Shown piece after piece: positions 3,873 through 42,349 of a DNA stretch of 43,420 nt (positions are counted from its first letter, which is position 1; each line of letters opens with the position of its first letter). This DNA comes from Kagunavirus LM02P1. The stretch is taken from sequence record OZ035819.1; one strand, 5' to 3'. The notes below the pieces were generated by a model, which saw nothing but the letters and a program-made list of their open reading frames with translations, searched no databases and was not told the DNA's origin. Position numbers and translations under genes: made by a program.

Positions 3873-4333
3873 TGATGGGCTTTTTCAAAGTAACTGACGT
3901 ACCTTCGCGTCGCGTTGTCCAGTTTGCTCGCGTGTCTGGCTCCGGTGAGAACGTGGTGTCTATTGGGGACGAAAGTGTACTAGGTACGCCAGTAGATGAT
4001 ATGCCGTTTGCAGATAAGACCGGTATTGCGCTACCCGCCGCGGGGATGCTTTACGAGATTCCGTATCTGGCTGACGCCGGCGACGTGTATTTCTCTGTGC
4101 AACCGAAAGACACGGAACTGACAGACGGCAGCGCGACTCTCACTGTCGAAGTTAAAGCCGGTAAAGCGCCATATGCTCTGACCTGGTACAAAGATGGCAA
4201 GGAAGTGGTAAACGCCCCGGAAGAGGCTTTGTCTCTGACGGTTAATGCTGTCGGTGAATACTTCGTTAAAGTTACCGATGCCGATGGTGTAGAGACGGTG
4301 AGTAAAGCGGCGAAGGTCACTAAGCCAGAATGA
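3872..4333 (+). CDS. Ig-like domain protein (possible head decoration/accessory)
   Basis: 153 aa; Ig-like signature YALTWYKDGKEV...GEYFVKVTDADG; ATGA overlap with upstream stop. Confidence 0.45.
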   Translation: MMGFFKVTDVPSRRVVQFARVSGSGENVVSIGDESVLGTPVDDMPFADKTGIALPAAGMLYEIPYLADAGDVYFSVQPKDTELTDGSATLTVEVKAGKAPYALTWYKDGKEVVNAPEEALSLTVNAVGEYFVKVTDADGVETVSKAAKVTKPE

Positions 4334-22551: not shown

Positions 22552-22565
22552 CTTGGGAGGTGGCT

Positions 22566-22718
22566 ATGAGCGAAGAAATTATCAAGATAATTATGCAGTT
22601 TATGATGCGCGTAGATCTAAAAGGTCAAGAAGTTCCGGCCTTCAATAAGGTCATGTCGGCGCTGCAACATGAGATTGATTCTAAGAGCGAGCCTAAGAGC
22701 GAGCCTAAGAGCGAGTAG
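22566..22718 (+). CDS. small protein with C-terminal (SEPK)x3 repeat
   Basis: ATG at 22566 with RBS GGGAGG; 50 aa; ends in tandem 12-nt repeat. Confidence 0.35.
   Translation: MSEEIIKIIMQFMMRVDLKGQEVPAFNKVMSALQHEIDSKSEPKSEPKSE
22683..22715 (+). repeat. tandem 12-nt repeat AAGAGCGAGCCT x2.75
   Basis: Direct in-frame repeat at the 3' end of ORF 22566..22718. Confidence 0.8.
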
Positions 22719-40453: not shown

Positions 40454-40482
40454 TTGACTATTACCTACGACCCTATTATATT
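40454..40482 (+). promoter_or_regulatory. sigma70-type promoter TTGACT-N17-TATATT
   Basis: Near-consensus; leader 40483-40515 carries the ATCGACAACGAGA variant of the conserved leader. Confidence 0.6.
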
Positions 40483-41512: not shown

Positions 41513-41681
41513 GCCAGTAGTTATCGATGGCGTCCTGTGGAAACCCTACGCGGTTAACCACATCGACGCCGACGGGAAGAAGTTCAGCTTCTACATTTTT
41601 GCAATTAGCCGTGAGCACGCCGCTTGTGTGGTCGACGATATACGAGAAACGGCGTGGCTCGGTGACGAGATAGTGGGGTGA
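41499..41681 (+). CDS. hypothetical protein (60 aa)
   Basis: ATG at 41499 overlapping upstream gene end. Confidence 0.4.
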   Translation: MESPEPVVIDGVLWKPYAVNHIDADGKKFSFYIFAISREHAACVVDDIRETAWLGDEIVG

Positions 41682-41683
41682 GT

Positions 41684-41944
41684 ATGGAACAGATTGAGCA
41701 ACTCAAGAAGAACAACAAAGACCTTAAGAAGGCGCTTGATAAGATTAACGGTAAGTATTCAAAAGCAACCCAGGAACTGACCGCTGCAAAACTGGAGATT
41801 GAACACCTAACGCGTGTTCGCGACATTCTGGAGAACGCCGAAACCTTGCGTAGCCAGAGGGCTTGGATTGATACGCCAGTATCAATTCTGATTGGCGTAG
41901 CGGTTGGGATGATATTTATGTGGGGTGTTGGGCATGTTCAGTGA
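41684..41944 (+). CDS. coiled-coil protein with C-terminal TM anchor
   Basis: ATG at 41684 (frame open from GTG 41678); hydrophobic C-terminus ILIGVAVGMIFMWGV. Confidence 0.45.
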   Translation: MEQIEQLKKNNKDLKKALDKINGKYSKATQELTAAKLEIEHLTRVRDILENAETLRSQRAWIDTPVSILIGVAVGMIFMWGVGHVQ

Positions 41945-42116
41945 CATCGACGCAGCAATCGAAGAAGCAATCGAAGAAGCAATCTGGCGTCGCTACAACG
42001 GCGAGCAACAGCGCCACTTCTGCCTGGTGCAACGAGGTAACTTGATTGCCGTAGTGCAGGACCGCGATAACAAATATCCGAATGCGATGTGGACAACGAG
42101 GAATTTCTTAGGATGA
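41934..42116 (+). CDS. small protein with (AIEE)x2.5 repeat
   Basis: ATG at 41934; contains tandem 12-nt repeat GCAATCGAAGAA at 41954-41983. Confidence 0.35.
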   Translation: MFSDIDAAIEEAIEEAIWRRYNGEQQRHFCLVQRGNLIAVVQDRDNKYPNAMWTTRNFLG

Positions 42117-42121
42117 TTACC

Positions 42122-42349
42122 AGCATTCCGAACCTGATTAAAGAATACGGCACGATGGCGGAGACGTGCAGACAAACCGGCATCAACGAAATGACGATTG
42201 CGAAGTACAGTAAAGACGTGAACTGCGAGCGCCACGTAATTTATAACAACCGTCTGATGACGCACGTTAAAACAAGCCCGGTGTTATTCACGCGCCGCGG
42301 TATCACTAAAACAGAGCAACGCATTGCTAAAGGGGAGAGTAGGGAATGA
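42122..42349 (+). CDS. small putative HTH DNA-binding protein
   Basis: ATG at 42122; helix-turn-helix-like YGTMAETCRQTGINEMTIAKYS. Confidence 0.4.
   Translation, partial: SIPNLIKEYGTMAETCRQTGINEMTIAKYSKDVNCERHVIYNNRLMTHVKTSPVLFTRRGITKTEQRIAKGESRE

Follow-up and report, generated by a model that had tools for sequence, protein, structure and literature searches.

The window that we analysed, i.e. the whole stretch of DNA of 43,420 nucleotides, belongs to a Kagunavirus (Guernseyvirinae), a K1G-like E. coli siphovirus whose best GenBank match for this genome end shares ~90% DNA identity; no near-identical record for the same end was found in GenBank. The small gene at 41934-42116 considered here belongs to a block of short + strand genes that overlap one another, flanked by the endolysin gene on one side and the terminase genes on the other. 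The features of this region, and of the tandem repeat that the small gene contains, are as follows:

40454-40482, + strand: promoter-like site TTGACT-17-TATATT (10/12 matches), just upstream of the first gene of the block (40516); a consensus match only.
41678-41944, + strand: upstream 88-aa ORF; its N-terminal part is charged and helical-looking, and a segment at the C-terminus is hydrophobic. Its last 11 nt are shared with the start of the small gene.
41934-42116, + strand: small protein-coding gene of PHROG 5407, from ATG (41934) to TGA (42116); 60 aa here, 56 aa in relatives.
41946-41957, + strand: degenerate upstream unit ATCGACGCAGCA (IDAA), the first copy of the TRF array; INAA or IDAA in relatives.
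41954-41984, + strand: perfect period-12 tandem tract, GCAATCGAAGAA x2.5, peptide A-IEEA-IEEA-I; the maximal tract is 31 nt, or 2.6 copies.
41955-41966, + strand: additional 12-nt unit (AIEE) that no relative examined has, as established against 65 homologous loci at both the DNA and the protein level.
42113-42349, + strand: downstream NinH-like gene (Pfam Phage_NinH, E=2.5e-5, below the gathering score; phrog_268, E=1.3e-30).

The product of ORF 41934-42116 is a 60-aa protein, MFSDIDAAIEEAIEEAIWRRYNGEQQRHFCLVQRGNLIAVVQDRDNKYPNAMWTTRNFLG (N-terminus MFSDIDAAIEEAIEEAIW...), and the repeat tract lies in frame within its coding sequence. This protein matches the phrog_5407 profile with E=1.4e-22, its residues 1-59 aligning to profile positions 8-63 of 88, which represents a full-length family match. 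For 47 distinct DNA alleles, the in-frame pN/pS comes to 0.049, as against 3.7 and 2.3 when the frame is shifted either way, with variable sites distributed as 16/12/45 over codon positions 1/2/3. Considering the low pN/pS, the profile match, and the start and stop overlaps with both neighbours, this ORF is a genuine and strongly conserved gene. At its 3' end, the TGA of the small gene and the ATG of the NinH-like gene overlap as ATGA, an arrangement that suggests translational coupling between the two. In some GenBank records the NinH label (Pfam PF06322) is placed over the region of the small gene itself; the possibility that the small gene is NinH was ruled out, since the 60-aa protein has no Pfam match at E<=0.1 and it is the following gene that gives the NinH-like match. 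A scan for consensus matches found no terminator-like site inside the small-gene block, and no promoter-like or inverted-repeat site overlapping the tract. In the accessible part of a transcriptomics paper on Kagunavirus, the adjacent gene, NinH, is listed among the middle genes, and there is no mention of the small gene (PMC12645636).

The first-pass annotation of this DNA had described a 12-nt in-frame AIEE repeat, present 2.5 times within ORF 41934-42116, and this description holds: positions 41955-41984 form an exact 30-mer, composed of GCAATCGAAGAA + GCAATCGAAGAA + GCAATC. Its placement of the repeat at 41954-41983 needs a slight adjustment, as the 3' end falls 1 base short and the start lies 1 base before the in-register GCAATC at 41955, and is otherwise correct. 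TRF reports an array at 41946-41984 (period 12, 3.2 copies, 92% matches, score 64), which takes in the degenerate unit. When the whole 43-kb window was shuffled with its dinucleotides preserved, an array with a score of at least 60 and a period of at least 6 arose in only 3/200 cases; 100 shuffles contained no match to the 30-mer with up to 3 mismatches allowed. By these shuffles the tract is beyond chance expectation, and is unlikely to have arisen by chance. The extra unit, given above as 41955-41966, could be placed just as well at 41967-41978, the insertion point within the tract being arbitrary.

Elsewhere in the window, a second in-frame 12-nt repeat, CTAAGAGCGAGC x2.9, is found at 22681-22715 (TRF score 70), within ORF 22560-22718 on the + strand. 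It encodes SKSEPKSEPKSE, at the extreme C-terminus of a 52-aa ORF that directly follows a 489-aa tail-fibre-like ORF, and is probably the other in-frame 12-nt repeat to which the first-pass annotation alludes.

How many units do relatives of the small gene carry? The loci compared came from IMG/VR (32) and from metagenomes (33), together with the GenBank phages ST20, K1G and Bas73. Wherever the tract is intact, the fetched homologous loci (65/65) encode AAIEEAIW (GCAATCGAAGAAGCAATC), i.e. 1.5 units in a 56-aa protein, and AAIEEAIEEAIW, with 2.5 units, occurs in the window only. When a 77-nt query across the tract was compared with 104 GenBank phage records, the best full-coverage matches all spanned 65 nt, 12 nt shorter than the query, and none of these best matches was an ungapped alignment. 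The exact 30-mer is absent from IMG/VR (2.9 million contigs), as is the exact 60-aa protein from an index of 153 billion genes. At the protein level, 12/12 protein-cluster representatives from a search of 5.8 billion proteins have one unit, and six distant full-length homologues (46-59% identity), recovered by a profile search of 1.84 billion representatives, have exactly one AIEE each. A scan of genome contigs returned no prophage copies, its sole match being a spurious one of 19 residues in Paenarthrobacter. Among the relatives the unit varies at synonymous sites (ATC/ATA/ATT, GAA/GAG, GCA/GCG), pS across the gene being 0.34, and the peptide AIEEAI is invariant.

Since all relatives examined have 1.5 units, we take the one-unit state to be ancestral and essentially invariant; judged by these comparisons, the insertion of a further unit is private to the window, and this 2.5-copy allele of a conserved Kagunavirus gene is previously unrecorded. 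The first-pass annotation had raised the prospect of a locus variable in copy number, and had proposed a comparison with relatives by which to check it. This comparison has now been run, with 1.5 units in all homologues examined and 2.5 in the window alone, so that length variation does occur. The notion of a copy-number-variable locus is nevertheless borne out only weakly, as the difference consists of one private variant, with no polymorphism among the relatives themselves.

The site of the insertion coincides with the most conserved part of the family, [DE]xAIEEA[ILM][WYF], which is followed by RH[FY]..VQ and MW[ST]T. All three motifs are present in the window protein, where one further AIEE stands in front of the first. 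Residues F2, I5, A12, I13, E14, E15, R27, H28, Q33, G35, V40, M52 and T55 are invariant in the family alignment. PHROG 5407 is found in Kagunavirus; more distantly related members come from N4-like phages, phi G17 and Salmonella phage Skate. One of the six distant homologues, P0015 (48% identity), is found in contigs of N4-like phages (L072, at 4001-4177, L073 and L074), where, in a 72-kb contig, it is encoded in a small-gene block downstream of N4 Gp1- and Gp2-like genes; the family is therefore common to Kagunavirus siphoviruses and N4-like podoviruses. Searches of Pfam and NCBIfam gave no match for the window protein or for nine other family members (n=10), a sequence-profile search of the PDB yielded nothing (best E=1.6), and Foldseek against the PDB no match at E<=0.001. 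Matches in BFVD are to uncharacterised small phage proteins only, including those of phi G17 (47% identity) and Salmonella phage Skate. On this sequence evidence, the gene product is a small accessory protein common to unrelated coliphage groups. A further BFVD entry, D2XJL6 (phage K1ind1, 93 aa), is an uncharacterised Kagunavirus protein with a similar predicted fold (TM 0.73, query-normalised; 23% identity; E=0.019), and may be a distant paralogue within the same phage group.

With a diverse alignment, AF2 returned a model of moderate confidence, built on only 10 aligned sequences (mean pLDDT 77.6), in which residues 5-22 form a helix and residues 28-34, 37-43 and 51-54 form strands. A shallow alignment had given a pLDDT of 59 and the same helix, and the value of 77.6 was reached after distant homologues had been added. 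The predicted fold is thus that of an N-terminal amphipathic helix packed on a small three-stranded sheet, and the entire repeat lies within the predicted helix. It is plausible, if speculative, that the conserved amphipathic helix of this small protein serves as an interaction surface. In a helical wheel, Ile 5, 9, 13 and 17 fall at 300, 340, 20 and 60 degrees, forming a continuous hydrophobic stripe over an arc of 120 degrees; in the relatives, the stripe is made up of Ile 5, 9 and 13. The insertion would turn the N-terminal end of the helix by ~40 degrees with respect to W18/Y21, and the hydrophobic moment, as computed, drops from 0.28 to 0.19.

What would these four added residues mean for the protein? 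In the model they would lengthen the predicted helix by about one turn, or roughly 6 Angstrom, and the protein with the insertion probably still folds, the change being neutral or mildly deleterious. Tolerance seems probable because the insertion amounts to about one more turn of helix, in which the stripe of an Ile at every fourth residue is continued. On the other hand, since it lies within the most conserved motif of the family, it could impair function rather than be neutral. A coiled coil or structural repeat was ruled out, as AF2 models a 60-aa globular protein in which the repeat, with its 4-residue period, lies in one short helix.

Taken together, we consider it very probable that the 2.5-copy allele is a recent, private 12-nt (AIEE) tandem duplication, most likely produced by slippage, in a constrained Kagunavirus gene, and that it is not a programmed variable-repeat switch. 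Slipped-strand tandem duplication between short direct repeats is the standard route by which small in-frame indels arise in the genes of bacteria and phages, and the ancestral allele, as represented by the relatives or by the window minus one unit, offers a suitable substrate: two copies of the 7-mer AGCAATC, at a spacing of 12 nt, form a 19-nt period-12 tract. During replication, the nascent strand would misalign between the two AGCAATC copies, i.e. by slipped-strand mispairing, and such a misalignment would duplicate exactly the 12 nt observed. In the window the two units are identical at 12/12 positions, and what has been inserted repeats the neighbouring sequence exactly, over the length of exactly one unit. 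That the duplication is recent is argued by this identity of the units, set against the variation at synonymous sites among relatives (pS 0.34), and by the absence of the allele elsewhere. The slippage mechanism is what we infer from this anatomy of the sequence.

Other explanations for the same observations have to be weighed. The extra copy could have been introduced in error during sequencing or assembly, or could stem from a minority variant that entered the consensus, in which case the true genome would have 1.5 copies as in the relatives; indeed, the 2.5-copy allele is seen in one sequence only. We regard this as unlikely, considering that errors in short-read or polished long-read assemblies are mostly homopolymer indels, and that a clean, in-frame duplication of a perfectly identical 12 nt is atypical of them. 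Moreover, a tract of 31 nt lies well within one read and so presents no ambiguity for an assembler, and both the reading frame and the sequence downstream of it are intact. One might instead regard the GCAATC(GAAGAA) repeats as an element acting at the level of the DNA, such as iteron- or operator-like binding sites for, e.g., the NinH-like product, with the coding of a peptide being incidental. This would draw on the spacing of the direct hexamer repeats, which are 12 nt (roughly one helical turn) apart, and on the neighbouring gene being annotated as DNA-binding in some records. However, synonymous third positions of the unit vary in relatives whose AIEEAI peptide does not, the constraint is on the protein (pN/pS 0.049), the peptide motif is kept in homologues of 46-59% identity, and neither an inverted-repeat nor a promoter-like site lies over the tract; a DNA-level role is accordingly extremely improbable.

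A more dynamic reading would have the tract as a hypervariable or contingency locus, frequently expanding and contracting, with length variants that the phage exploits, for example by altering its contacts with a host or defence protein. Copy number does differ between the window and the relatives, and the duplication has increased the direct-repeat homology from 7 to 19 nt, a length that should ease further slippage compared with the ancestral allele. Yet copy number does not vary among the 65 fetched loci, among the best-ranked of the 104 GenBank records or in homologues with as little as 46% identity, and typical contingency tracts are far longer than the 2.5 units present here. Furthermore, as the unit is a multiple of 3 (four codons), no copy number could switch the frame on or off. 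Such a locus is highly improbable on this evidence, and the related idea that the added helix turn is adaptive, re-tuning an interaction with a host or defence protein in the host of this phage, with 1.5-, 2.5- and 3.5-copy subpopulations that the 19-nt homology could yield, appears very unlikely. We conclude that the locus acts as an ordinary mutation and not as a switch, a recent slippage duplication being the reading that we retain.

Further short-homology rearrangements are apparent in the same small-gene block. The 10-mer ACATCGACGC occurs both at 41560-41569, inside a 77-aa upstream gene, and at 41944-41953, just before the repeat. Protein P0007 (...AVNHIDAAIEEAIW...), from Salmonella phage CTH7, represents an in-frame fusion whose junction coincides exactly with the ACATCGACGC microhomology, with ~384 nt deleted, and proteins P0010 and P0012 are further in-frame fusions that join the C-terminal half to different upstream ORFs. 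In L063, P0011 (phage Schulenburg), P0018 and L064 the gene is frameshifted or truncated, with N-termini read in the +1 frame (TLTQQSKKQSG...) or a frameshift after WRRYNG; most of these frameshifted relatives are known from single contigs, and the frameshifted or truncated versions could be real pseudogenes or sequencing errors. Directly upstream of the start codon, at ~41900-41933 in the window and at the equivalent positions in loci L001-L034, the sequences fall into several unrelated classes (..ILM, ..DSGVxM, ..LCGVLGM, and ..LGLCGVETV with a GTG start), which shows a mosaic recombination junction to lie right at the 5' end of the gene.

An ordinary mutational mechanism lies behind the 2.5-copy allele, and its significance is very small. 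It may serve as a strain marker for the window phage, and is one more instance of rearrangement at short homologies in the block of small genes that separates the lysis genes from the terminase genes. As a natural four-residue insertion in the most conserved motif of the family, it could also help to map the role of the N-terminal helix, once a function for the protein has been found.

Comparison with known systems helps to place this locus. The contingency loci of Haemophilus and Neisseria, with their tetra- and pentanucleotide tracts, and VNTR-type protein repeats resemble it in being coding tandem repeats that slippage can in principle change; they differ in that the tract here has 2.5 units, each a multiple of 3, with no frame switch, and shows no polymorphism in the 65 fetched loci or other relatives. 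Within PHROG 5407, the window protein shares the motifs AIEEA[ILM][WYF], RH[FY]..VQ and MW[ST]T along with the full-length profile match (E=1.4e-22), and its predicted fold of a helix plus three strands agrees with the BFVD models of members; it stands apart as the only member with a doubled AIEE, and with 60 aa vs 56. Slippage duplications are matched here in the exact copying of adjacent sequence, in the length of one unit, and in the 7-nt direct repeats set one unit (12 nt) apart: there is no difference in kind, the event at this locus being known by its footprint alone.
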